A DNA stretch of 64,000 nucleotides from an uncultured Clostridia bacterium (GCA_944332455.1 CALVJY010000010.1:170-64169); one strand, 5' to 3'; counted from the first letter of the stretch, positions 1-14,055 are shown. Numbers and translations are program-made. The notes: generated by a model from the letters alone, not told the origin.

Positions 1-2
1 GC

Positions 3-464
3 AGCTACAGCTGGCTGGTCGCCCACAAGACCGCCACCTCGACCACCATTTCGGACGCCGTCCTCCAGAAGATGGCGGACAGTCTGGAGATGGACGCCGG
101 CAGCCGGGTCAACATGATCGTCTGCTCGGCCGGGGTGCGGCGGGCCTACCAGAACTACCTGCTGACCAACACCCGCAACGTGGACGTGGTCAACCTGGAG
201 GGCGGCTACAAGGCCATTTCCTTCAGCGGCATCCCGCTGGTGGCCGACAAGTTCTGCCCGGCCAAGCACCTTTACATGCTGAACACCGACGACTTCAAGC
301 TCCACCAGCTGTGCGACTGGAAGTGGCTGGAGGGCGAGAACGGGCGGGTGCTCCGGCAGATGGAAAACAAGCCGGTCTACACCGCCACGCTGGTCAAGTA
401 CGCCGACCTGATGTGCGACAAGATCTACGGCCAGGGCGTCTTTACCAACATCACCGAGGCCTGA
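3..464 (+). CDS. Phage major capsid protein, C-terminal part (runs off window start)
   Basis: Open frame from base 3 (SYSWLVAHK...). The C-terminus 'GGYKAISFSGIPLVADKFCP...KLHQLCDWKWLE...YTATLVKYADLMCD..GQGVFTNITEA' resembles HK97-fold capsid P-domain ends in Firmicutes phage-like loci. Confidence 0.72.
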   Translation, partial: SYSWLVAHKTATSTTISDAVLQKMADSLEMDAGSRVNMIVCSAGVRRAYQNYLLTNTRNVDVVNLEGGYKAISFSGIPLVADKFCPAKHLYMLNTDDFKLHQLCDWKWLEGENGRVLRQMENKPVYTATLVKYADLMCDKIYGQGVFTNITEA

Positions 465-572
465 GCCCGGGGAGGCAGGGGCCGGACCTTCCGGCCCCGC
501 CTTCCGAAAAAACGGACCGGCAGGAGAGGGCGGCATTTCGCCTTTCCCTGAAAACCGGTCGGGGAGGAGGAT

Positions 573-818
573 ATGCAGCGGCATCTGATCCGCATCCGCT
601 CGGACGCGCTGGACATCGCCGACCGCATCCGGGAGATCGACCCGGACTATCGGCTGTTTTATGACCCGCGGCGGCAGCGGTACGAGGTCTTTCTGGATGA
701 CGAGGGGAAGCGGCGGACCGCCGTGCTGCCCTTTTCCGCCCTGGACGCCCGCGCCGAGCGCTATCTGCGCCGCACCCGGGTGGAGCGGGCCGACCAACTG
801 TTTGCCGAACTCTTTTAG
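573..818 (+). CDS. Small hypothetical protein of the phage-like module (81 aa)
   Basis: Strong RBS GGAGGAGG before ATG, coding-like codon usage, directly after the capsid gene. Confidence 0.65.
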   Translation: MQRHLIRIRSDALDIADRIREIDPDYRLFYDPRRQRYEVFLDDEGKRRTAVLPFSALDARAERYLRRTRVERADQLFAELF

Positions 819-822
819 GGGT

Positions 823-1356
823 GGTGAGGCACAACCTGTACGCCACTCTTGGCTGACCGAGAAAATTGATTGATAATTCCTGCGATAAATTTTAGTCGAT
901 ATGTGCCGCGGAGCGGCACTTGATATATGGCCTGACGGCCATTCGATATGCGGCCCTATCGTGCCGCTCGATATGTGCCACAACGTGGCACGTATTGGAC
1001 AGAAACACATTGAAAGCAGTACGGTTATAAAATCCATAGTTTTCGATCTGTTTTATCCAATACGAATGGCCGGGTTCGGGGCCTCTGCCTTGATCTTTAC
1101 TCCATATATGGAGGGACAAAACAGAGGGGAAAAACAAGGAACAAGGCCATTCATATCGATTGCCCGCAAAGCGGGCAAATATCGAGTTTGCCTTTGGCAA
1201 ACATATCAAGTTTCCCGTCAGGGAAACATATCGTCTGAAAGATTGGGCGAGAACGGCAACTTTTTTTACCCTTCATTTTGTCACGGGCGTACAGGATGTG
1301 CCTTCAGGCACCCCGGCGGCGCTGCCGCCCATATCGAGTTTCCCGCCAGGGAAACA
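823..1356. repeat. Family A intergenic repeat mosaic (hairpin array plus GCAGGAA...GAGTGGGCGTA...GTGCC-GGCAC module)
   Basis: About 823-985 is the reverse complement of the unit at 57222-57401. About 1041-1290 is the reverse complement of about 3676-3996. Hairpins are joined by (C)ATATCGA linkers. Confidence 0.85.
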
Positions 1357-1398
1357 GTTCGACCTAAAAAGAAGGAGGGGCCCTTCGGGGCCGAGATC

Positions 1399-1959
1399 AT
1401 GAAAATTCAGATGAATCAATGTATCAAGCTGGCCGCCGGCCTTCTGGGCCTGAGCGCGGTGGCCGAAAACCCCGCGGGGGAACTGGGCGGGGAGGACGCC
1501 GCCGACCGCGACCTGCTGCTAAAGTGCGTCAACCTGGCCGCCCAGCAGACCGCCCTGAAGACCTCGCCGCCCCGGGCCGAGGAGACCGTGACGATCGAGG
1601 GGCAGGAGCTGGAGCTGGGGCAGCTCTCCAAGCGGGCCCTCGAGGTGATCGGCGTGCGGGACCATCAGGGGAGGCCGGTCGCTTTCACGCGGCTGCCCTA
1701 CGGGGTGCGCCTCAAGGGGCCGGGGACCTTCCGGGTGCGCTATGCCTTCCTGCCCGACGACGCCGCCCTGAACGGCAGTCTGGCCTTCGACGAGGGCCGG
1801 GTGCACGCCGAACTTCTGGGTATGGGCGCGGCGGCCGAGTACTGCCTGATCTCCGGACGGTTCTCGGAGGCCGCGGCCTGGGAGGAGGAGTTTCTAAGCC
1901 GCCTCTCGGCCGCGGGCCGCAGGGCGCGTCTGCCCCGGCGGGCCTTCGCCGTCAGCTGA
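1399..1959 (+). CDS. Putative head-tail adaptor / head completion protein (podovirus gp4 / tail tubular protein A-like)
   Basis: 186 aa. Helical N-terminus, beta-rich middle ('FRVRYAFLP'), helical C-terminus ('LLGMGAAAEYCL...AAAWEEEF'). Lies between the capsid and nozzle-like genes. The upstream part of the 901..1959 ORF is repeat-derived. Confidence 0.5.
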   Translation: MKIQMNQCIKLAAGLLGLSAVAENPAGELGGEDAADRDLLLKCVNLAAQQTALKTSPPRAEETVTIEGQELELGQLSKRALEVIGVRDHQGRPVAFTRLPYGVRLKGPGTFRVRYAFLPDDAALNGSLAFDEGRVHAELLGMGAAAEYCLISGRFSEAAAWEEEFLSRLSAAGRRARLPRRAFAVS

Positions 1960-2016
1960 GGCCTTTTGCCGGAGGTCGCTCTCAGCAGGGGGGGGAGTCT
2001 TTGCCCTTACACACCC

Positions 2017-2199
2017 AAAAACATGGGCCGTCGGGCGATGATTCATTGAAAAGGGCAAAAGTTCCGGAAGAGCCGGACCGCCGCTCCCTGAAAGAGGCCC
2101 CGAAAAACATGGGCCGTCGGGCGATGATTCATTGAAAGGGGAAAAGTTCCGGAAGAGCCGGTGTTTTCCCTTGAAAAGGCCAAAAAACGCGGGCCGTCG
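2017..2199. repeat. Degenerate direct repeat, ~60-bp unit x2 plus partial third (starts 2017, 2103, 2182)
   Basis: AAAAACATGGGCCGTCGGGCGATGATTCATTGAAA.GG..AAAAGTTCCGGAAGAGCCGG occurs twice. Confidence 0.85.
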
Positions 2200-2245
2200 C
2201 CCCGGCCCTTGAGCCCATCAAAAACGATCACAGGAGGGGAACCAC

Positions 2246-3655
2246 ATGAAAATTCCCTCGGTCCGCCGCACCGTGCAGATCTTCTCGGATTTTTCGGGAG
2301 GGGTGTCGGGGCAGCGGGAGGAAAACCTGCTGCCCCAGCGCTATGCCCGGGCGGGGTTCAACTTTGCCTCCGGGGACGGCGCCCTGCGGGGGGATCCCGG
2401 CGTCAGCGCGCTGTCCGCCGGGATCGGCATCGCCGACAAGAGCTTTGCGATCGCCGGGGAGAGCGTGGAGGGGGTCTACTACTTCCGGCGCTACGACCAC
2501 GAGGAGGACTGCCCCGACGACAAGCTCCTCTTTTACACCGCCTCCCACAAGATCTACGCCTCCGACCTCTGTCAGGCGGGGGCGCCCTATCTGGTGGACA
2601 TGACCTTTTCCTCCCGGCCCTTCGGGGTGGGCTACCGCCTGAACGGGGAGGACGTGATCATCCTGGCCACCGAGACCGACGCCATGACGGTGTGGGACGG
2701 GGTAAACGACCCCTACCAGCTGACCGACGCCCCCAGGGTGTCCTCGCTGTGCGTACACTACGAGCGGCTGTTCGCCACCGCCGCCGGCGAAAACACCGCG
2801 GTCTGGTTTTCGGACGATCTGAACGTCACCAACTGGAACGTCTCATTAGACGAGGCCGGCTTTATCGAGAACGTGGACGAGGGCGGGGGCTTTCTGAAGG
2901 CGGTCAGCTTTCTGGATTCGGTCTACCTGTTCCGCTCCTACGGCATCTCCCGGCTGACCGCCTACGCCGACCAGACGGCCTTCCGGCTCTCCCGCCTCTT
3001 CGTCTCGGCCGGGCGCATCCTCCCCGACACCGTCTGCGTGTGCGGGGACCGGATCAACTTTCTGACCGAGCAGGGGCTGTACAGCTTCGACGGCTACGAC
3101 ACCGTCCGGCTCTGCCCCCAGTGGGACAGGCTGATCCTGCCCAGGGAGGGGAGCCCTTCGGCGGCCTTCGCGGAGGGAAACTATCTGCTGTGCTGCCGGG
3201 CGGACTTCGGGGAGAGCGGCGCCGGCAACAACGCCCTGCTGATCGCGGGCCGGGAGCAGACCGTCTGCAAGATGCCGGTCGATTTTGTGGCCGCCCTCTC
3301 GGCCGAGAGCCGGAACATGGCGCTGCTCTGCGCCGAGGGCAAGGCGGCCATGCTGGACAAAAGCGGCAAGTGGTTCGGCCAGTCCCTGGAAAAGCGGTGG
3401 GAGACCCCCTTTTCCGACCTCAACCGGGCGGACGCCCAGAAGGTCGCCCAGCTTCTGACCCTGAACGCCGACGGCCCCTGCACGGTCACCGTGCGGAGCG
3501 AGCGGGGGAGCCGGACCCTCTCCTTTGCGGGGACTGGGGCCGAGCAGAAGCGGTTCTCCCTCCGGGGCACCCGCTTTTCGCTGGAAATTTCCTCCGAAGC
3601 GCCCAACCTCTGCCTGTCCAAGCCCGAACTTACAATATGTACCCTTCGGGATTAG
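2246..3655 (+). CDS. Putative tail nozzle / DNA-stabilization protein (P22 gp10 / T7 gp12-like beta-propeller)
   Basis: RBS AGGAGGG. N-terminal 'FSDFSGGV' resembles the D-F-x-G-G start of podovirus nozzle proteins. Repeated beta-blade motifs (ERLF...VWFSD..NVTNW, FLDSVYLFR..GISRL). Confidence 0.58.
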   Translation: MKIPSVRRTVQIFSDFSGGVSGQREENLLPQRYARAGFNFASGDGALRGDPGVSALSAGIGIADKSFAIAGESVEGVYYFRRYDHEEDCPDDKLLFYTASHKIYASDLCQAGAPYLVDMTFSSRPFGVGYRLNGEDVIILATETDAMTVWDGVNDPYQLTDAPRVSSLCVHYERLFATAAGENTAVWFSDDLNVTNWNVSLDEAGFIENVDEGGGFLKAVSFLDSVYLFRSYGISRLTAYADQTAFRLSRLFVSAGRILPDTVCVCGDRINFLTEQGLYSFDGYDTVRLCPQWDRLILPREGSPSAAFAEGNYLLCCRADFGESGAGNNALLIAGREQTVCKMPVDFVAALSAESRNMALLCAEGKAAMLDKSGKWFGQSLEKRWETPFSDLNRADAQKVAQLLTLNADGPCTVTVRSERGSRTLSFAGTGAEQKRFSLRGTRFSLEISSEAPNLCLSKPELTICTLRD

Positions 3656-3659
3656 TTCC

Positions 3660-4421
3660 GGCCAGACGGCAATAACGCCCGTGACAAATGAAGGGTAAAA
3701 AGGTTGCCGTTTTCGCTCCGTCTTTATGTCGATATGTTTGCCTGACGGCTTTCGCTCCGTCTTTATGTCGATATGTTTGCCTGACGGCTTTCGCTCCGTC
3801 TTTATGTCGATATGTTTGCCTTTGGCAAACTCGATATGTTCCCTTCGGGAACACGATATTTGCCCGCAAGGCGGGCAATCGATATGAATGGCCTAGTTTA
3901 TTGTCTTTTCCCTCTGTTTTGTCCCACCATATTGGAGCAAAGATAAAGCAGAGAGGCCCAAACCCGGCCATTCGTATTGGATAAAACAGATCGAAAGATG
4001 TACGATTTTTAAAAACCTATCGCAGGAACAAGCGATCTGGTTTTCCGTTTGTCCCGAGTGGGCGTACGGAAAGGTGCCTGTGGCACCCCCGGCGTTGGCG
4101 CGACGAGATTGAAAGCCCGGTACATATCCGGTACATATATGGTGTTCGTCCACAACGTGCCGCGAAGCGGCACATATCGAGCAAGGCGAGCAAAGCTGAG
4201 CCTGTATATCGGCTAAAATACATTGCAGGAACATCAAGCAATGTCCACACTTGCTCAGAGTGGGCGCGTTGCCAGGTGCCGCCGGCACCGGAGCCTTGCA
4301 TATCGAATGGCCGTCAGGCCATATATCGAGCGGCCGTAGGCCGCATATCGACAAACATAATTTGCAGGAACAAGCAATCAATATTCTCGCTTATTGAGAG
4401 TGGGCGTGCTTTCAGGCACTT
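3660..4421. repeat. Family A repeat mosaic, including a 39-bp tandem x~3 (3711-3821) and three GCAGGAAC...GAGTGGGCG modules
   Basis: TTTCGCTCCGTCTTTATGTCGATATGTTTGCCTGACGGC starts at 3711, 3750 and 3789. Modules lie near 4022, 4223 and 4363. Confidence 0.85.
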
Positions 4422-4438
4422 GTCAAGAGGAGAACATC

Positions 4439-5623
4439 ATGCCGGATTACGGAAAAATGGCCTGGCTGCGGACCGAGGAACTGCTGGCCCGGGTGGAGGC
4501 GCTGGAGAACAGAAGGGGGCTGGCCCTGGGGCTGACCCTGAACGAGGAGGTGCTGCGCTCGGTGACCGAGCACAACCTGATCACCCTGCCCGTGCAGGGC
4601 GAGGCCGGGGGCAGCGTGGAGTTCCGGGCCGCCCTGACCGTTCTGGGCGGGGAGGCCGGGGCGGGCAAGACGGCCGCCCTCCGCCTGGCCTGGGACGGCA
4701 CGGAGATCGCCCGCTTCGAGCGGACGCTGGCGACCGGGAGCGAGGTCTGGTCGGTGAGCGCGGCCTTCGGGGCCCTGTCCGGGCGGCACACCCTGACCGC
4801 CGACCTGCTGGCGGAGGCGGGAAGCTGCTACCTGGAGCGGGCCGAGCTGACCCTGACGGGGACGGGGGTGCGCGAGGAAAAGGCCGAGGCCCACTATGCC
4901 GCCTTCGGCAGCCGCTACGGGGAGATCTTCCTGCTGGAGCGCAAGGGGGGACTGGACCTCGTCAACCAGTCCGAGAGCGGGCAGACCATCACCACGCCCG
5001 CCCGCACCCTGCCAAGGCCGGATGACTTCGCGGCCTGCGAGATCTTTTCGGGGCAGACCTCGCACACTCTGTTTTTCCGGCTGACCGGGCGGGAGCTGTA
5101 CGGGGGGCTGCTGAACCTGCTCACGGGGGCGGAGACCCTGCAAAAAGTGGCCGGCGGGGTGACCTCGGTCTCCTGCGTGACCACGGATCAGGGGGCGCTG
5201 GCCGCCGCCGTTGTCAACGGGGGCGTGTTCGTGTTCCCGGTCACGATGGCCGGGGAGACCCTCTCCTTCGGGAGTTTTTCCGAGGTCCGCCTCTCCGGCA
5301 TGGCCGAAAAGGTCTGCCTGGTGCCCGGCGGCCCCCATCTTCTGATCCGCACGGGCGGGGTGTTCTACCTGCGGACGGGGAGCGCCTCCGGCTTTTCCCC
5401 GGCGCTGCGGGTGGGCAAGGGGGAGACCTGTAACGGCTGGACGGACGAGGACGGCCTGCATCTGGAGCTGGGCGGCGAGGGCTGCGTGACCGCGCTGGAC
5501 CTGACCGGCGGGGCGCTGACCCAGCCGGCCTTCGTCCGCCTGGCAGACGAGGTCAAGCGGCACGGAAATTATATCCTGAGCCGCACTTCGGATCGCTACA
5601 TGATGGAGAGGCTGGAAACTTAG
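4439..5623 (+). CDS. Hypothetical protein of the phage-like module (possible tail appendage; short N-terminal coiled coil then beta-rich)
   Basis: RBS AGAGGAG 6 nt before ATG 4439. 394 aa with host-like codon usage. No family recognised. Confidence 0.7.
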   Translation: MPDYGKMAWLRTEELLARVEALENRRGLALGLTLNEEVLRSVTEHNLITLPVQGEAGGSVEFRAALTVLGGEAGAGKTAALRLAWDGTEIARFERTLATGSEVWSVSAAFGALSGRHTLTADLLAEAGSCYLERAELTLTGTGVREEKAEAHYAAFGSRYGEIFLLERKGGLDLVNQSESGQTITTPARTLPRPDDFAACEIFSGQTSHTLFFRLTGRELYGGLLNLLTGAETLQKVAGGVTSVSCVTTDQGALAAAVVNGGVFVFPVTMAGETLSFGSFSEVRLSGMAEKVCLVPGGPHLLIRTGGVFYLRTGSASGFSPALRVGKGETCNGWTDEDGLHLELGGEGCVTALDLTGGALTQPAFVRLADEVKRHGNYILSRTSDRYMMERLET

Positions 5624-5639
5624 ATTGGAGGTAAAAGCC

Positions 5640-6548
5640 GTGTTTGACTTTACATTCGGCGAAGAGGACAAGAAGGAACAGGAAGAGCAGCAGGCCCACA
5701 AGAGCCAGCTGCTGAAGGAGCTGGAGGAGGTGGACAAAAAGTATCAGGCCGACCCCACCGGGGTGGAGGACGAGGACACCTCGCTGGGCCTGACCTTTCT
5801 GGAGGCCGACCCCCGTCCGCGGGAGGAGCTGGAGGCCGAGGCCCGCCGTCAGGTGGAGGAGGCCGACCGGACCGAAAAGCAAAAGCTGACCCAAGAGGCC
5901 GACCGGGAGATCTCGGACCTCGATCGTCAGCGGGCGGAGACCGAGCAGGCCGGGGCGGAGGCCAGGGCCGGGCTGGAGCAGGCCTACGCCGACCGCAAGA
6001 AGGAGGCCGAACAGCAGGCCCTCTCCCGGGGGCTGGCCCGCTCCTCGATCATCATGGGGCAGATTGAGGAATTCGACCGCGGCAAGCTGGACGATCTGGG
6101 GGCGCTGGAGCAGTCCCTGCTCTCGGAACTGTCCGGCCTGTCCGAGCGCCGGGCCGACCTGGAGCGGGAGCGGGACAACGCCATTTCCGAACTCGACCTG
6201 ACTGCGGCCGCCCGCATCTCCGAGGCCCTGTCCGCGCTGGAGCAGGAGGAGCGGGAACGCCTGGAGGAGATCGTCAAGTACAACAACACCCTGACCGAGA
6301 AGCAGACCAAGTACGACGCCGACCGCCGGGACGCGGCCTGGAGCAAGCGCAATCAGGCCCTGTCCAACCTCAGTCAGGCCGAACTGCAGAAGATGATCGG
6401 GGAGGAAAAGGTGGAAAAAGTCAAAGCCTACTACGCCGGCCTCTCCCCGCAGGCGGCCCTGGAGGACCTGCTCGCGGATGCCGAACTGCAAAAAATGCTG
6501 GGGAGCTACTACGCCTACCTGGTCAGCTACTACCGCAACCGCATCTGA
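5640..6548 (+). CDS. Acidic coiled-coil protein (possible internal virion / ejection protein)
   Basis: RBS GGAGGT then GTG at 5640. Long E/Q/A/R/L-rich helical sequence. Last gene of the module. Confidence 0.7.
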   Translation: MFDFTFGEEDKKEQEEQQAHKSQLLKELEEVDKKYQADPTGVEDEDTSLGLTFLEADPRPREELEAEARRQVEEADRTEKQKLTQEADREISDLDRQRAETEQAGAEARAGLEQAYADRKKEAEQQALSRGLARSSIIMGQIEEFDRGKLDDLGALEQSLLSELSGLSERRADLERERDNAISELDLTAAARISEALSALEQEERERLEEIVKYNNTLTEKQTKYDADRRDAAWSKRNQALSNLSQAELQKMIGEEKVEKVKAYYAGLSPQAALEDLLADAELQKMLGSYYAYLVSYYRNRI

Positions 6549-6686
6549 TATCGCAAGCGTCTGATATTGCAATTGCATTTGATATCGCAATTGCATTTGA
6601 TATCGCAATTGCATTTGATATCGCAATTGCGTTTGATGCTGCGATCGCGTTTGATATCGAAATCGTATTTGATATCGCGCCGCATT
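6546..6686. repeat. 18-bp tandem array x8, consensus TGATATCGCAATTGCATT
   Basis: Units start at 6546, 6562, 6580, 6598, 6616, 6634, 6652 and 6670. The core units carry the palindromes GATATC and GCAATTGC. Confidence 0.95.
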
Positions 6687-6702
6687 GGTTGCTTTAATCG
6701 CA

Positions 6703-6743
6703 AAGCCGCCGCCGCAAAAGTTTTTTGCGGCGGCGGCTTCTTT
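6703..6743. terminator. Bidirectional intrinsic terminator between the phage-like module and fic
   Basis: AAGCCGCCGCCGCAAAA-g-TTTTTTGCGGCGGCGGCTT inverted repeat between convergent genes. Confidence 0.75.
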
Positions 6744-6796
6744 GGGTGAAAGTTCACAGTTTGAAATCTTGTTCGAAATATTTCTTGGTTGAAGGT

Positions 6797-7783
6797 TTAC
6801 AGTTTGAAGTATCTTTGATTCCGGCTTGTCGGCCTGTCCGGCTCGGTCATGCCGATCAGCCCTGCCTCCAGGGCGGGCTGCAGGTAATTTTTGTGAAACG
6901 AGGTGCGCGATCTGAGGCCGAGTTTTTCCATCAGCTCCAGCGCGGTCTGGGGATAGCTTTCGATCACGGACATCAGCGCCCCGATCTGATGGCTCAGGTG
7001 ATCCCGGTGATCCCGTGCGTCTGCGGCCAGGGCCCGGACGGCCTCCCGGATGGCTCCGAGCATGAAGAGGATAAAGGGATCGGACCGCCCCTCCGAGGTG
7101 GAGAGCCCGATCGCCCGATAGTATTCCTGCTGCCGGTCTTTGATGATGCTCTCAACGGGGATCCAGGCGAACACGGGCTTCCAGCTCGCCAAAAGAGCGG
7201 TCTGCCAGAAGCGCCCCATTCTGCCGTTGCCGTCGCAAAAAGGGTGGATGAATTCGAATTCATAGTGGAACACGCTGGAGCGAATGAGCATCTGGGCCCG
7301 GCTGTTTTTCAGCCAATCGAAGAGCTGGTGCATCAGCTCGTTCACCAGATCGTGAGGAGGGGCGACATGAAGCACCTTTCCCCGCTCGTTGATGACGTCG
7401 ACCGATTCCGTGCGCAGGACCCCGGGCTCCTTCATCAGCCCGTCCATCATCACCCCGTGCGCCCTTTTCAGGTCGTCCGGAGAAAAGGGATCCAACCCGG
7501 GCAGCATCCGGTAGGCGGCAAAGGCGTTCTGCACGGCCCGGATGTCTTCCTGCGGGCCGAGGACCCGCTTTCCCTCGATGACGTCGGTCACCTGCGCCAG
7601 GGACAGCGTGTTGTTTTCGATGGCAAGAGAGGAATGGATGGAGCGGATCCGGTTGACCCGGCGCAGGCGGGGCAGCTTTTCCAGCTCTTGGACCGCGCTC
7701 AGCCTGCCAAGATCCTCCATGATCTCGGACGTCAGCGCCAGCATCTCTTCCGTGATGGTGTAGGGGGGCGTGTAACCTTCCAT
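6797..7783 (-). CDS. Fic family protein with C-terminal HTH
   Basis: Canonical motif HPFCDGNGRMGR, inhibitory motif SLAIEN (S/T-x-x-x-E-G/N), C-terminal winged-HTH-like region ending 'PTSRNQRY'. Confidence 0.92.
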   Translation of the reverse strand: MEGYTPPYTITEEMLALTSEIMEDLGRLSAVQELEKLPRLRRVNRIRSIHSSLAIENNTLSLAQVTDVIEGKRVLGPQEDIRAVQNAFAAYRMLPGLDPFSPDDLKRAHGVMMDGLMKEPGVLRTESVDVINERGKVLHVAPPHDLVNELMHQLFDWLKNSRAQMLIRSSVFHYEFEFIHPFCDGNGRMGRFWQTALLASWKPVFAWIPVESIIKDRQQEYYRAIGLSTSEGRSDPFILFMLGAIREAVRALAADARDHRDHLSHQIGALMSVIESYPQTALELMEKLGLRSRTSFHKNYLQPALEAGLIGMTEPDRPTSRNQRYFKL

Positions 7784-7806
7784 AAAAGCCTCCGATCGTC
7801 CCCTTC

Positions 7807-7835
7807 ATTATAGCAAAAATCTCCGTGGGAGTCAA
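7807..7835 (-). promoter_or_regulatory. Sigma-A promoter of fic
   Basis: Minus strand TTGACT-17-TATAAT with extended -10 TG. Confidence 0.8.
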
Positions 7836-7846
7836 TCTTTATCAGG

Positions 7847-7897
7847 ATCTTATATGTTATCTTATATGTTTTCTTATGTGTTATCTTATATGTTATC
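7847..7897. repeat. 12-bp tandem repeat x4 (ATCTTATATGTT)
   Basis: Units at 7847, 7859, 7871 (two mismatches) and 7883. Confidence 0.9.
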
Positions 7898-8009
7898 CTG
7901 TATTTTCCGGGAGTAAACATCTTTTTGCCGCGACCGGACTGCCTTTTAGCAGAGGTTGAATGATGCTTTTCCCTTTTTGCATACCTTTCGGGAATGCTCC
8001 AGGCCCGGC

Positions 8010-8090
8010 GGCGGATCGATGACCCGGGCGGATCGGCAGACCCGGAGGCGGATCGATGACCCGGGCGGATCGGCAGACCCGGAGGCGGAT
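8010..8090. repeat. 37-bp tandem repeat x2 plus partial
   Basis: GCGGATCGATGACCCGGGCGGATCGGCAGACCCGGAG at 8011 and 8048. Confidence 0.9.
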
Positions 8091-8118
8091 TGACAAACCC
8101 GACGGATTGTGCTATACT
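8090..8118 (+). promoter_or_regulatory. Sigma-A promoter of the MBL hydrolase gene
   Basis: TTGACA-17-TATACT with extended -10 TG. Confidence 0.8.
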
Positions 8119-8201
8119 CTTTCCAAACGGGAAACTTCTGTGATCACAGTTTAAGATCATTTTTTGTGCCGTTTTTATGAGATATCCGGGAGGAGTCGGA
8201 C

Positions 8202-8990
8202 ATGAGATTGGACGGAGATGTGTTGGTGCAGTTCTGTCCCCGTTCTGCCAGCCAGATGATGGGCTATGCGCTGGAGGGCCGGGAGGGCGTGATCGTCATC
8301 GACGGGGGCACGCCGGCCGAGGCCGAACATCTGGAGGCCTTCTTGCTGGAGCGGGGCGGAGCGGTCGAGGCCTGGTTCCTGACCCACGCCCACTTTGACC
8401 ACATCGGCGCGGTCACCGAGATCCTCCGCCGGGGGCGGTGCAAGATCAGGACATTGTACTTCGATTTCCCGCCCCTCGGTTTTTTAAAGGAGCGGGAGGA
8501 GATCGAGAAGTCCGTCCCGGCCGCCGAGGCCTTTTGGGAGGCCGTCAAAGCTTCGGGTCAGCGGACGATCCGCACCGAAAAGGGGATGACGGCGGAGGCC
8601 GGCGGGTTCCGGATCCGGGCGCTGACCGAGGGAGGCCTGCCCGCCCGCAACATCAACGAGACCACTGTGGTCTATCGGGCGGACACCCGGGGCCAGCCCA
8701 TCCTCTTTCTCGGGGACCTGGAGGAGGACGGCGAGGCCCGCCTGATCCGGGATTTCCCTGCGGAGATCCGCTGTCCCGTCGTCCAGATGGCCCATCACGG
8801 GCAGAACGGGGTCAGCATGGACTTTTACCGCCTCGTCCGGCCCGAACTCTGCCTCTGGCCCACGCCGGACTGGCTGTGGACCAACGTGGACGGGACCGGC
8901 CCCTTCCGCACTCTGATCACCCGGCAGACGGCCGGGGAACTGGGCTGCGAAGATCTGACCTCCTTTCACGAGGACGCCTGGCTCCGCTGA
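8202..8990 (+). CDS. MBL-fold metallo-hydrolase (ComEC/Rec2-like)
   Basis: Motifs VIDGG, THAHFDH, LFLGD, AHHG. RBS GAGGAG. Confidence 0.85.
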   Translation: MRLDGDVLVQFCPRSASQMMGYALEGREGVIVIDGGTPAEAEHLEAFLLERGGAVEAWFLTHAHFDHIGAVTEILRRGRCKIRTLYFDFPPLGFLKEREEIEKSVPAAEAFWEAVKASGQRTIRTEKGMTAEAGGFRIRALTEGGLPARNINETTVVYRADTRGQPILFLGDLEEDGEARLIRDFPAEIRCPVVQMAHHGQNGVSMDFYRLVRPELCLWPTPDWLWTNVDGTGPFRTLITRQTAGELGCEDLTSFHEDAWLR

Positions 8991-9493
8991 CCCGCCGGCG
9001 GGACAAGCGCCCTCGGGCGATCTGTCGGGACCGTTCCAACAAAATCCGCCCTTCACGGGTGGCCGTTTTTCGAAGGGAAAGAGGGAGGCGGAAAGAAAAG
9101 TCAAAAGAGGAGAGGCTTTTTGATCGCGGCCGATCTCTTGTTAATCGGGCGGGGAAAGCGAAGGGTCAGAAAGAGAGAGGCGTTGAAACAAGAAAAGGGT
9201 CAGAAGAAGGGGAGAGAAAGAAGAGAGGAGAGCGTTGGAGAGAGAAAGAGAAAAACCGGACCGGCGCGTGTCGGCCTTTTTTCTTACTCAAAGACCGATG
9301 GGGATCCAGGTCAGTTCCGGGCCTTCGGCCCGAAGCGTCAGAAAGTGAGGAGAGGAAAAAAGAGGGGAGAGCGTCAGAAAGAGAAGAAGAAGAGTGGAGG
9401 GACCGGCGGTGCCGGTCTTTTTTTCTTGCCCGGGAACCTTTTTCCGGGGCGGAAAACACACATAAAAAGCGGGGGAAGAGGCATACTAGGGGC

Positions 9494-12920: not shown

Positions 12921-12982
12921 ATTGCATGTAAGTGTACTGTGAGTTCTGTATGTAACGATTTAGTTTTTATTCCGGACTTTTG

Positions 12983-14026
12983 TTACTTTTGTGAAAAGTA
13001 TAATAATGATTGATTTATACTATCTTTTAAAACTTGAATATTAAATTCCTTATAGAGGATTTTCATGCGCTTTAAAAAATCTTTATCAGAAGTAATCAAA
13101 TAGCAACTGTCTCTTTTAGTTGAGCTAACATGGTTTTTTATGTAGTCTAAATACATTCTCATGATAAACAAATCTATGTAATTATTTGCTAAAAATACAT
13201 CATCATTAATAAAAATATCACGCAATTCAAATTCAATAATTTTTTCTTCAAATTTATCAATATTTCCTAAATCGAGGTTTTTCTTTATTACATTTATAGC
13301 GCTATTTTGAATTTGTTCATCAGATAAATTACTCAATGCAGGAATCTGTTTCTTCATTTCAGAAATGCGTAATTTTAAAAGGTTCTCCTCTATGTTGGTG
13401 GGGCACGATGAATTAAAATCTATATTTGAAAGAATAAATAAAGAATCTTTCGAATCTAGATTTATATAACTGAGCCATACATTGTATCGAATAATATCTC
13501 TTATGTTTTTATATGTTTTTTTAATATTCTTTTCTTGTAGAGAGTTTGAATTTTTTAATTTAAAAAGTTCGTTTTCAATAGTGACTGAAAGCCTACTGCG
13601 TACTATACTTATAAGCTCTCTTAAAGTTATATCGTCAAATTGAAATGCTTTTAATCTAGAATAAATGTGTTGAAGATAATACCAAATAACCATAAGCCGA
13701 TTGACAATATTGCGTTTTAGTTCAGCAATAATAGGCTTACTTAACTCTTCGAAAAAATCGTTAAAAGAGAGATTATAACCTGTAAAATCCTTATCTGACA
13801 ATTTAAACGAATCACTTATATGAATCTTAAAACCATCAAAATTTTTTTTTAAATATTTTACTGTATCCTTGTATCCATCTAATCCTTTTTGATTAATAAT
13901 TTCAAATACTGAATAGGCAGAAAAAATAATTTTGCTGGTTTTTAAATCTGTTTGAAACGCCCTATTTAAAATAGGATTTTTTTCAACAATATAATTAATA
14001 ATACATGTATCTAAATATAACAGCAT
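12983..14026 (-). CDS. AT-rich orphan, PIN-domain-like protein (347 aa)
   Basis: RBS AAGGGG. N-terminal 'LLYLDTCII...IIFSAYSVFEII' and C-terminal 'NYIDLFI...YLITSDKDF' match PIN acidic motifs around a long helical insert. Strongly AT-rich versus its flanks. Confidence 0.6.
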   Translation of the reverse strand: MLLYLDTCIINYIVEKNPILNRAFQTDLKTSKIIFSAYSVFEIINQKGLDGYKDTVKYLKKNFDGFKIHISDSFKLSDKDFTGYNLSFNDFFEELSKPIIAELKRNIVNRLMVIWYYLQHIYSRLKAFQFDDITLRELISIVRSRLSVTIENELFKLKNSNSLQEKNIKKTYKNIRDIIRYNVWLSYINLDSKDSLFILSNIDFNSSCPTNIEENLLKLRISEMKKQIPALSNLSDEQIQNSAINVIKKNLDLGNIDKFEEKIIEFELRDIFINDDVFLANNYIDLFIMRMYLDYIKNHVSSTKRDSCYLITSDKDFLKRMKILYKEFNIQVLKDSINQSLLYFSQK

Positions 14027-14055
14027 ATTCCCCTTAGCATAGTTATAACTTTGTT

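Follow-up and report, generated by a model that had tools for sequence, protein, structure and literature searches.

A candidate domesticated podovirus-derived particle cluster, resembling gene transfer agents, in the Christensenellales

Virion genes embedded in a bacterial chromosome may belong to a prophage, to the remains of one, or to a particle that the host maintains, and it is this question that is raised by the first 6743 nucleotides (nt) of the DNA considered here. The whole stretch analyzed, referred to as the window, is 64,000 nt long and corresponds to C10:170-64169, where C10 is contig CALVJY010000010.1 of the metagenome-assembled genome (MAG) GCA_944332455.1 from an uncultured Clostridia bacterium (2.35 Mb in 53 contigs; 61% GC). 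The organism was placed in the Christensenellales from the names attached to homologues. Located at window positions 1-6743 are six intact, co-oriented open reading frames (ORFs) on the plus strand, with a strong hairpin downstream, just as the initial annotation of the window had described. That annotation had labeled two of the products adaptor-like and nozzle-like and had proposed a domesticated virion module, which was to be examined by searching for virion folds and for upstream terminase, portal, and scaffold genes, and by assessing synteny, phylogenetic congruence, and the ratio of nonsynonymous to synonymous substitution rates (dN/dS) in relatives. On the basis of the results presented here, we consider it probable that the cluster encodes a domesticated podovirus-derived particle system, similar to the gene transfer agents (GTAs), that is conserved across the Christensenellales.

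Contig C10 begins within the capsid gene, and the upstream half of the cluster lies outside the window. The N-terminal part of the major capsid protein (MCP) is encoded on C40, a contig of 16 kb, at its 3' end (C40:15507-16113), with 76 identical bases common to the two contigs at the join. This join is confirmed by a sister species (85% amino acid identity), which carries the entire region on single contigs (loci L114 and L132, the latter an 86-kb scaffold). The full MCP contains 387 amino acid residues (aa), and the sister species has a contiguous gene for a protein of the same length. The terminase, portal, and scaffold genes anticipated by the initial annotation are indeed found on C40, together with a regulator resembling region 4 of sigma-70 and a divergently transcribed gene for a secreted protein. 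Cluster genes were assigned by tblastn and from the gene calls of the sister species, and their locations are provided in Table 1. The cluster measures ∼12-14 kb, with the portion from TerL to DUF7934 accounting for 10.5 kb (12 kb with the regulator), and 13 of 13 genes are intact both here and in the sister species. Note that the TerS-like family represented by the small gene after TerL aligns only to positions 196-264 of the 319 positions in phrog_309.

The genes that border the cluster are those of the host, namely rplI, two peptidases, and a BspA-type leucine-rich repeat protein on the upstream side, and ytfI/ytfJ-like genes, a PBP5-type carboxypeptidase, and ileS on the downstream side. 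No integrase, repressor, replication, or excision gene was found on either flank, whether here or in the contiguous sister-species scaffold, and the lack of an att site that had been noted downstream of the six ORFs holds for the upstream side as well. These observations bear on one rival explanation, in which the cluster would be either a helper-dependent satellite that is still mobile or a minimal temperate podovirus, and would look conserved because it integrates at conserved sites; the model is that of the capsid-forming phage-inducible chromosomal islands (cf-PICIs). The compact size of 12-14 kb, the presence of its own capsid, portal, and terminase, the sigma/ArpU-like late regulator, and the flagging of cluster fragments as viral by the IMG/VR classifiers all fit such an element. 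However, the cluster encodes its own adaptor and nozzle, which the cf-PICIs lack, and in none of the long loci was there an integrase, excisionase, repressor, primase, replication gene or module, or att-like flanking repeat. The distribution follows the host phylogeny, whereas that of a prophage or PICI is expected to be patchy. We regard a mobile satellite as very unlikely, and several of the results described below count further against it.

The podoviral character of the cluster is most evident from its head and tail proteins. The full MCP, a protein of the HK97 fold, scores 286 bits against the NCBIfam model NF033394 (capsid_maj_Podo), and it shows a weak match to SU10_MCP. The 186-aa protein encoded next but one after it had no family match in the sequence scans, and a profile and sequence search of the PDB was likewise fruitless. 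Its AlphaFold2 (AF2) model, with a mean predicted local distance difference test (pLDDT) value of 93.6, gave Foldseek matches in the PDB to the proteins of Pa223 (9nwi_A, 5e-6), N4 (9lc0_H), GP4, and SU10, and a weaker one to T7 gp11 (7box_N, E value of 9.8e-3, TM-score of 0.37). Judged by its predicted fold, the protein is a head-to-tail adaptor of the T7 gp11/N4/SU10 type, encoded between the capsid and nozzle genes. The model of the 469-aa protein, calculated with AF2 from a 57-sequence alignment, has a pLDDT of 90 and a predicted TM-score of 0.89, and consists of a β-propeller followed by a β-sandwich. Its best Foldseek match is to Pa223 (9nwi_Y, 5.5e-21, TM-score of 0.75), with further matches to VP1, GP4, SU10, P22 gp10 (8eap_D), and T7 gp12. 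By this modeled architecture it is a podovirus tail nozzle, and its gene directly follows that of the adaptor. Both of the earlier labels, adaptor-like and nozzle-like, are therefore upheld by predicted fold, and with them the expectation of virion folds.

The remaining products of the window half are less easily assigned. The 81-aa protein belongs to a family, c6, whose members contain 85-140 aa in relatives and occupy the same position in 44 of 61 loci. A search of 5.8 billion proteins gave just two homologues for the 394-aa protein (p394), at 97% and 66% identity, and p394 has no match in the PDB or Pfam. Throughout the order, nevertheless, the gene that comes after the nozzle invariably begins with the same N-terminal motif, M-DYGK-AYLK..ELE, behind which lie unrelated bodies of 290-800 aa; an extra gene of ∼650 aa is sometimes present as well, and one of the post-nozzle variants matches phrog_5302, annotated as 'tail protein'. 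Given the shared N-terminus and the unrelated bodies, the slot follows the pattern of a tail-anchored, specificity-determining protein, and from its sequence p394 is a putative distal tail protein (a needle, fiber, or receptor binder). The term ejection protein, with which the initial annotation had closed its gene order, stands as a putative label for the products of the last two genes. DUF7934 is found in 53 of 61 loci and is invariably the last gene of the structural block; no structural or functional match was obtained for its product, nor any sequence match in the PDB. None of the conserved cluster genes encodes a toxin or enzyme domain.

A nozzle match was obtained in 255 of the 401 Christensenellales genomes sampled, in 113 of the 170 genera of the order, and nearly always as a single copy, which speaks against a mobile satellite. 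All seven genera of the MAG's own family carry one nozzle copy per genome, and the carriers include a cultured organism, Pumilibacter muris CLA-AA-M08 (locus L111). The genes stand in one and the same order in each of 80 species-level loci: regulator, SH3 protein (on the minus strand), TerL, TerS-like gene, (small gene), portal, scaffold, MCP, small gene, adaptor, nozzle, variable gene or genes, and DUF7934. Synteny is accordingly kept across the order. In many genera BhlA and Phage_holin_1 holins come directly after DUF7934; next in line are the genes for a membrane protein, for RNase J, for an O-methyltransferase of the TrmR type, and for a U32 peptidase. This neighborhood is a conserved chromosomal address. 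The initial description of the cluster as lacking a holin is correct for this genome but not for those many relatives.

Maximum-likelihood trees were constructed for 13 loci that include RNase J. The tree for the cluster (TerL, portal, nozzle, DUF7934, and adaptor) and that for the host (RNase J and c13, the membrane protein) have 10 of 10 splits in common, whereas shuffling of the labels left 0.33 shared splits on average and never more than 3. The two histories are congruent, and a topology the same as that of neighboring host genes is a further argument against a satellite. Pairwise distances for the five proteins of the cluster tree correlate with those for RNase J at r = 0.82-0.92; the lower value for the MCP (0.54) is probably due to a mis-called ORF. 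Within the cluster, conservation is strongest for TerL, with a mean pairwise distance of 0.35 versus 0.42 for RNase J and an identity of 52-64% across families.

The cluster has also persisted in small genomes. Those of 0.8-1.0 Mb with 29-31% GC retain the block from portal to nozzle and the holins, and in G069, one of two reduced genomes examined, TerL, the SH3 gene, and the regulator lie alongside too. In genus g38, which likewise has genomes of 0.8-1.0 Mb, an intact TerL is positioned 12-51 kb from the portal-nozzle block on the same contig (G135:C1, G095:C2, and G037:C9). Since this locus is split and yet all of its parts are intact, it cannot be an excisable prophage, and it fits a mobile satellite no better. 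In G135 all that comes after the nozzle is a 95-aa ORF whose DUF7934-like match spans just 37 aa.

In composition the cluster matches its host. The GC content at third codon positions (GC3) is 0.85-0.95 for 10 of 11 cluster genes (0.71 for the scaffold) as compared with 0.83-0.93 for the flanking host genes, and codon usage in the cluster correlates with that of the host at r = 0.97, in accordance with the host-like codon style noted at the outset. Across the carriers, composition tracks that of the host from 29% to 66% GC. When calculated against the sister species, dN/dS falls between 0.10 and 0.31 in 10 of the 11 cluster genes that gave an estimate (the scaffold is at 0.40), and the 67-aa gene gave none. 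The genes are under purifying selection similar to that acting on flanking host genes. The ranges of dS overlap (0.52-0.96 for the cluster and 0.68-0.79 for host genes). Neither the host-like dS nor a composition that follows the host is in keeping with a satellite.

These values also speak to a second rival explanation, namely that the cluster is the inert, decaying remnant of a prophage. In its favor are the want of lysogeny, replication, and, in this genome, lysis genes, the repeats that occupy two of the intergenic gaps, and a frameshifted capsid gene in one relative. A remnant would not be expected to exhibit such dN/dS values, or to keep every gene intact in two species; nor would it be retained in 113 genera, including reduced genomes of 0.8 Mb, or be spared by the repeats in each of its ORFs. 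We judge it highly improbable. Several lines of evidence, independent of one another, contradict both the satellite or prophage and the inert-debris explanations. What is observed, instead, is a set of phage-derived structural and packaging genes fixed in the chromosome without genes for replication, integration, or lysogeny, inherited vertically with linked host markers and held under purifying selection, as in a GTA.

The repeats require further comment. According to the initial annotation, the gaps between the cluster genes hold a host repeat family, and this colonization was taken as a sign of long residence. The first statement holds for two of the five gaps. The family comprises up to ∼50-60 copies on 23-24 contigs of the assembly, in composite units that are confined to intergenic DNA. 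With self-matches set aside, blastn gave 103 hits on 23 contigs for the gap at 819-1398, reaching a depth of 47, and 213 on 24 contigs for that at 3656-4438, reaching a depth of 59; each gap holds inverted copies of the other's repeat. The dispersed repeat was not found in the gaps at 465-572 and 6549-6796, and that at 1960-2245 contains only local 86-bp duplicates. The second statement fails, for the sister species has the same cluster without the repeats. Its gaps are 57-165 nt in length and repeat-free, with 89 nt at the equivalent of 819-1398 and 57 nt at that of 3656-4438; because they are short and free of repeats, the expansion is taken to be recent and specific to the present lineage. 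The repeats avoid every ORF of the cluster.

Phage counterparts were sought with little success. The nozzle has no tblastn match in the 50,697 phage records of INPHARED, the closest phage MCPs are 27-29% identical, and no complete phage carrying this module was found. In IMG/VR there are six contigs of 8-16 kb, all of which are fragments of this same cluster. At the level of the class, a nozzle profile revealed no co-linear full cluster outside the order, but only orphan or degraded nozzle loci (L123 and L124); a search with PF25588 likewise gave no full cluster outside the order, the profile being too narrow even for some Christensenellales. Within the library of papers searched, no description of such an element was found beyond PMC12946183.

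The second of the two outlying loci merits a separate description. In G458, a member of another order of Clostridia, positions 9742-14091 of L124 encode a scaffold-like protein, a 411-aa capsid-like protein, a 468-aa nozzle homologue, and a holin-like protein. The block is flanked by housekeeping genes, with no portal or terminase within 10 kb, and it may represent a different domesticated head-and-hub module.

A podovirus-type GTA is known from Faecalibacterium prausnitzii (FpGTA). Its FpGTA I operon spans ∼10.5 kb and includes a TerS without a DNA-binding domain (PMC12946183, Nat Commun 2026). The products are TerL (RCH50852), the portal (50851), a Prp-annotated protein (50850), the MCP (50849), a small unknown protein (50848), the adaptor (50847), the nozzle (50846, matched to 8eap), 50845, and an abundant 'TolA'-annotated protein (50844), and the particles have 40-nm capsids containing ∼8.5-9 kb of host DNA (PMC12946183). 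The resemblance to the present cluster is considerable. Both are chromosomal operons of gut Clostridia, near-ubiquitous in the case of FpGTA in its clade, without integrase or replication genes, and the parts follow one another identically: TerL (of the PF03237 type in both), portal, one gene, MCP, small gene, adaptor, nozzle, one gene, and a coiled-coil or 'TolA' protein. The 81-aa protein occupies the position of RCH50848 and DUF7934 that of the abundant virion protein RCH50844, and the nozzles of both systems match P22 gp10 (8eap).

There are differences as well. The two systems belong to different bacterial orders. Between the portal and the MCP lies a Prp-like gene in FpGTA but a scaffold-like gene in the present cluster; for the FpGTA adaptor the PDB match was 7sp4, whereas the adaptor described here matches the T7 gp11, N4, and SU10 types; and the TerS-like gene precedes TerL in FpGTA but follows it here. 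FpGTA has a second operon encoding a receptor-binding protein, a holin, and an endolysin, for which no counterpart was found in this genome. Instead, the variable tail gene lies inside the cluster and, in relatives, the holins come directly after DUF7934.

The GTAs of the RcGTA type, from Rhodobacter capsulatus and Caulobacter (CcGTA), are similar to the present cluster in being vertically inherited, ameliorated head and packaging clusters under purifying selection, with a TerS lacking DNA-binding specificity and no replication or integration genes; their dispersed loci recall the arrangement in genus g38. They differ in that they are derived from a siphovirus (with a tail tube and tape measure), are regulated by CtrA and GafA, and occur in the Alphaproteobacteria, whereas this cluster is of the podovirus type, has a sigma-region-4-like regulator, and belongs to the Bacillota. 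In PBSX of Bacillus subtilis the late genes are driven by the sigma-like factor Xpf. PBSX is comparable as a chromosomally fixed, defective phage-like element of a Gram-positive host with sigma-like late regulation, but it has a contractile myovirus tail, a length of ∼28 kb, and a repressor module, and it is limited to a few Bacillus species. It packages random host DNA (as cited in PMC12946183). Finally, Pa223, N4, SU10, VP1, GP4, and P22 share the adaptor and nozzle folds, and the portal is of the P22/SU10 type, but they are autonomous viruses, 40-70 kb in size and equipped with replication genes, and identities in the structural alignments are 8-16%.

By analogy with FpGTA, RcGTA, and PBSX, the production of particles, their packaged content, and their delivery may be envisaged as follows. 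A host signal would activate the sigma-like activator in a fraction of the cells, and small capsids would assemble on the portal. TerL, together with the specificity-poor TerS remnant, would then fill them by a headful mechanism with fragments of host DNA shorter than the cluster, after which the adaptor, the nozzle, and the variable tail protein would close and arm the capsid. Particles would exit by lysis; holins adjoin the cluster in relatives, whereas lysis genes were not located in the present genome. GTA-like packaging of fragments of 4.1, 6.3, and 7.1 kb has been reported for HGM11616 and QANA01, which were placed in the Christensenellaceae, with no locus identified (PMC12946183). When compared with a cluster of 10.5-12 kb, these fragments are shorter than the locus, a relationship that is suggestive only.

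The main rival to a GTA-like system is a domesticated particle with a role other than gene transfer. It could be a killing or adhesion particle released on lysis, as has been argued for PBSX, or a vehicle for the release of protein or self-DNA (extracellular DNA, biofilm), with packaging being incidental. The data on conservation, selection, and vertical descent fit such a particle equally well, a fast-evolving tail protein is to be expected of the specificity determinant in any targeting particle, and the authors of the FpGTA study left open whether its particles deliver DNA (PMC12946183). Against it are the absence of toxin and enzyme domains from the conserved genes and the behavior of TerL. 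As the most conserved gene, kept intact even after relocation, TerL argues for selection on DNA packaging itself. We consider a particle without a gene-transfer role unlikely, although less so than either of the explanations dealt with above.

Several observations weigh against the GTA-like interpretation and must be set beside the evidence for it. Approximately 36% of the sampled genomes of the order have no detectable nozzle. In the present genome there is no recognizable holin or endolysin at or near the locus, and tblastn revealed no holin homologue elsewhere in it. The host genes used in the congruence test are physically linked to the cluster. The capsid gene of G003, a member of the same family, is frameshifted. 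The organism lives in the chicken gut, and four metatranscriptomes from this habitat yielded contigs that match portions of the adaptor and nozzle genes with 97-99% identity, but their depths are low and similar to those of neighboring genes, such that carry-over of DNA is possible. The MCP of FpGTA is annotated as N4-gp56, whereas the MCP described here hits NF033394 and not the N4-gp56 model at E<=0.01. Indeed, the likeness to FpGTA rests on architecture, with FpGTA having been compared by annotation and assigned function, and it may reflect either a shared ancestor or parallel domestication. In this organism and in all of the relatives that carry it the cluster is known from its genes, and particles, packaging, and transfer are predictions made by analogy.

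With regard to the G003 capsid gene, a 2-nt frameshift (GTCGTGTGAACC; L024, 14084-14114) splits it into ORFs of 182 and 205 aa, and this is either an assembly error or a pseudogene.

A more ambitious proposal is offered tentatively, with somewhat less confidence than we would need to favor it. An SU10/N4/P22-like podovirus may have been domesticated long ago, at or near the root of the Christensenellales and independently of FpGTA, from which the cluster would differ in sequence. The cluster would then be the source of the 4-7 kb GTA-like packaging reported in human fecal particle fractions for MAGs assigned to the Christensenellaceae, and the first order-wide GTA lineage in the Bacillota, extending down to 0.8-Mb genomes, with the hypervariable tail protein setting the range of recipients. 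The Christensenellales are heritable, health-associated gut bacteria of which very few have been cultured. If the cluster makes GTA-like particles, a built-in system of gene exchange would run through most of the order, and the cluster would be the missing locus for the packaging already seen in human fecal particle DNA. The podovirus-type GTA of Faecalibacterium, the only genus for which GTA-like particles of this kind have so far been demonstrated experimentally, would be no isolated case but a recurrent solution in gut Clostridia. A caution for virome studies also follows from the six IMG/VR contigs, since virus classifiers flag fragments of the cluster as viral.

Table 1 Features of the cluster and its immediate surroundings. 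Locations are window coordinates unless contig C40 is named; dN/dS refers to the comparison with the sister species.
Feature	Location	Strand	Basis or remark	dN/dS
Sigma-70 region-4-like regulator	C40		∼121 aa; 140 aa from an in-frame upstream start	0.14
Secreted protein, divergently transcribed	C40		SH3 domain in relatives	
TerL (large terminase)	C40		PF03237, phrog_2	0.11
Truncated TerS-like small gene after TerL	C40		C-terminal part of TerS profile only	
67-aa gene	C40			
P22-type portal	C40		PF16510, phrog_156	0.10
Scaffold-like protein	C40		no family match	0.40
MCP, C-terminus, 153 aa (dN/dS for MCP)	3-464	+	phrog_14242, 1.5e-30	0.16
81-aa protein	573-818	+	no match in Pfam, PHROG, NCBIfam	0.22
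Intergenic gap, dispersed REP/MITE-like (repetitive extragenic palindrome/miniature inverted-repeat transposable element-like) host repeat	819-1398		103 non-self blastn hits	
Head-to-tail adaptor, 186 aa, start MKIQMNQ	1399-1959	+	predicted fold match	0.19
Intergenic gap, ∼86-bp local direct repeats	1960-2245		outside dispersed family	
Tail nozzle, 469 aa	2246-3655	+	predicted fold match	0.11
Intergenic gap, dispersed repeat and 39-nt tandem repeat	3656-4438		213 non-self hits	
Putative distal tail protein, 394 aa (p394)	4439-5623	+	conserved N-terminal motif	0.31
DUF7934 charged coiled-coil protein, 307 aa	5625-6548	+	PF25588, 2.1e-30	0.19
18-nt tandem repeat, ∼8 copies	6539-6682		between DUF7934 stop codon and terminator	
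Perfect 17-bp GC-rich hairpin	6703-6741		read directly from sequence	
Fic gene	6797-7783	-	convergent with cluster	
Host pepM1				0.12
Host PBP5				0.22

At the downstream boundary of the cluster, the strong terminator and the Fic gene reported in the initial annotation were both located, the Fic gene lying on the minus strand (Table 1). The hairpin was identified by direct reading and was not flagged by a simple consensus terminator scan; lying between the last cluster gene and the Fic gene that faces it, it probably terminates transcription from both directions. The unit of the 18-nt tandem repeat that precedes it, GCATTTGATATCGCAATT, has no other occurrence in the genome. Approximately 2.9 kb between DUF7934 and the ytfI-like gene (6600-9490) are missing from the sister species, and this block contains the Fic gene along with two tandem repeats, one with a unit of 12 nt (7836-7907) and one with a unit of 37 nt (8000-8110).

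At the other end of the window half, the last 45 nt of C40 (16114-16158) diverge from C10 beyond the 76 shared bases, and no second copy of them was found in the assembly. They most likely represent an assembly-graph artifact or a minor strain variant. A breakage hot spot in the capsid gene was at one point suspected, given that C10, G003, and L079 all break near residue 180. It was ruled out: the break in L079 is a masked run of N, that in G003 is the 2-nt frameshift, and the contig breaks of other MAGs are scattered across the MCP, portal, and TerL genes. Many of the cluster-bearing MAG contigs (L034-L113) are short, at 5-7 kb, and end inside TerL, the portal, or the MCP at varying positions, which may reflect within-sample strain heterogeneity in these three genes.

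Farther along in the window, positions 12930-14040 constitute a 1.1-kb island of 25% GC within the 61% GC genome. It contains a single minus-strand ORF of 347 aa (12983-14026) that has no Pfam match and a codon usage foreign to that of host genes (r = -0.22). The island has no equivalent in the sister species, whose genes for the pseudouridine synthase and YitT lie side by side. It was probably acquired recently by horizontal transfer, and the ORF is possibly a defense gene.

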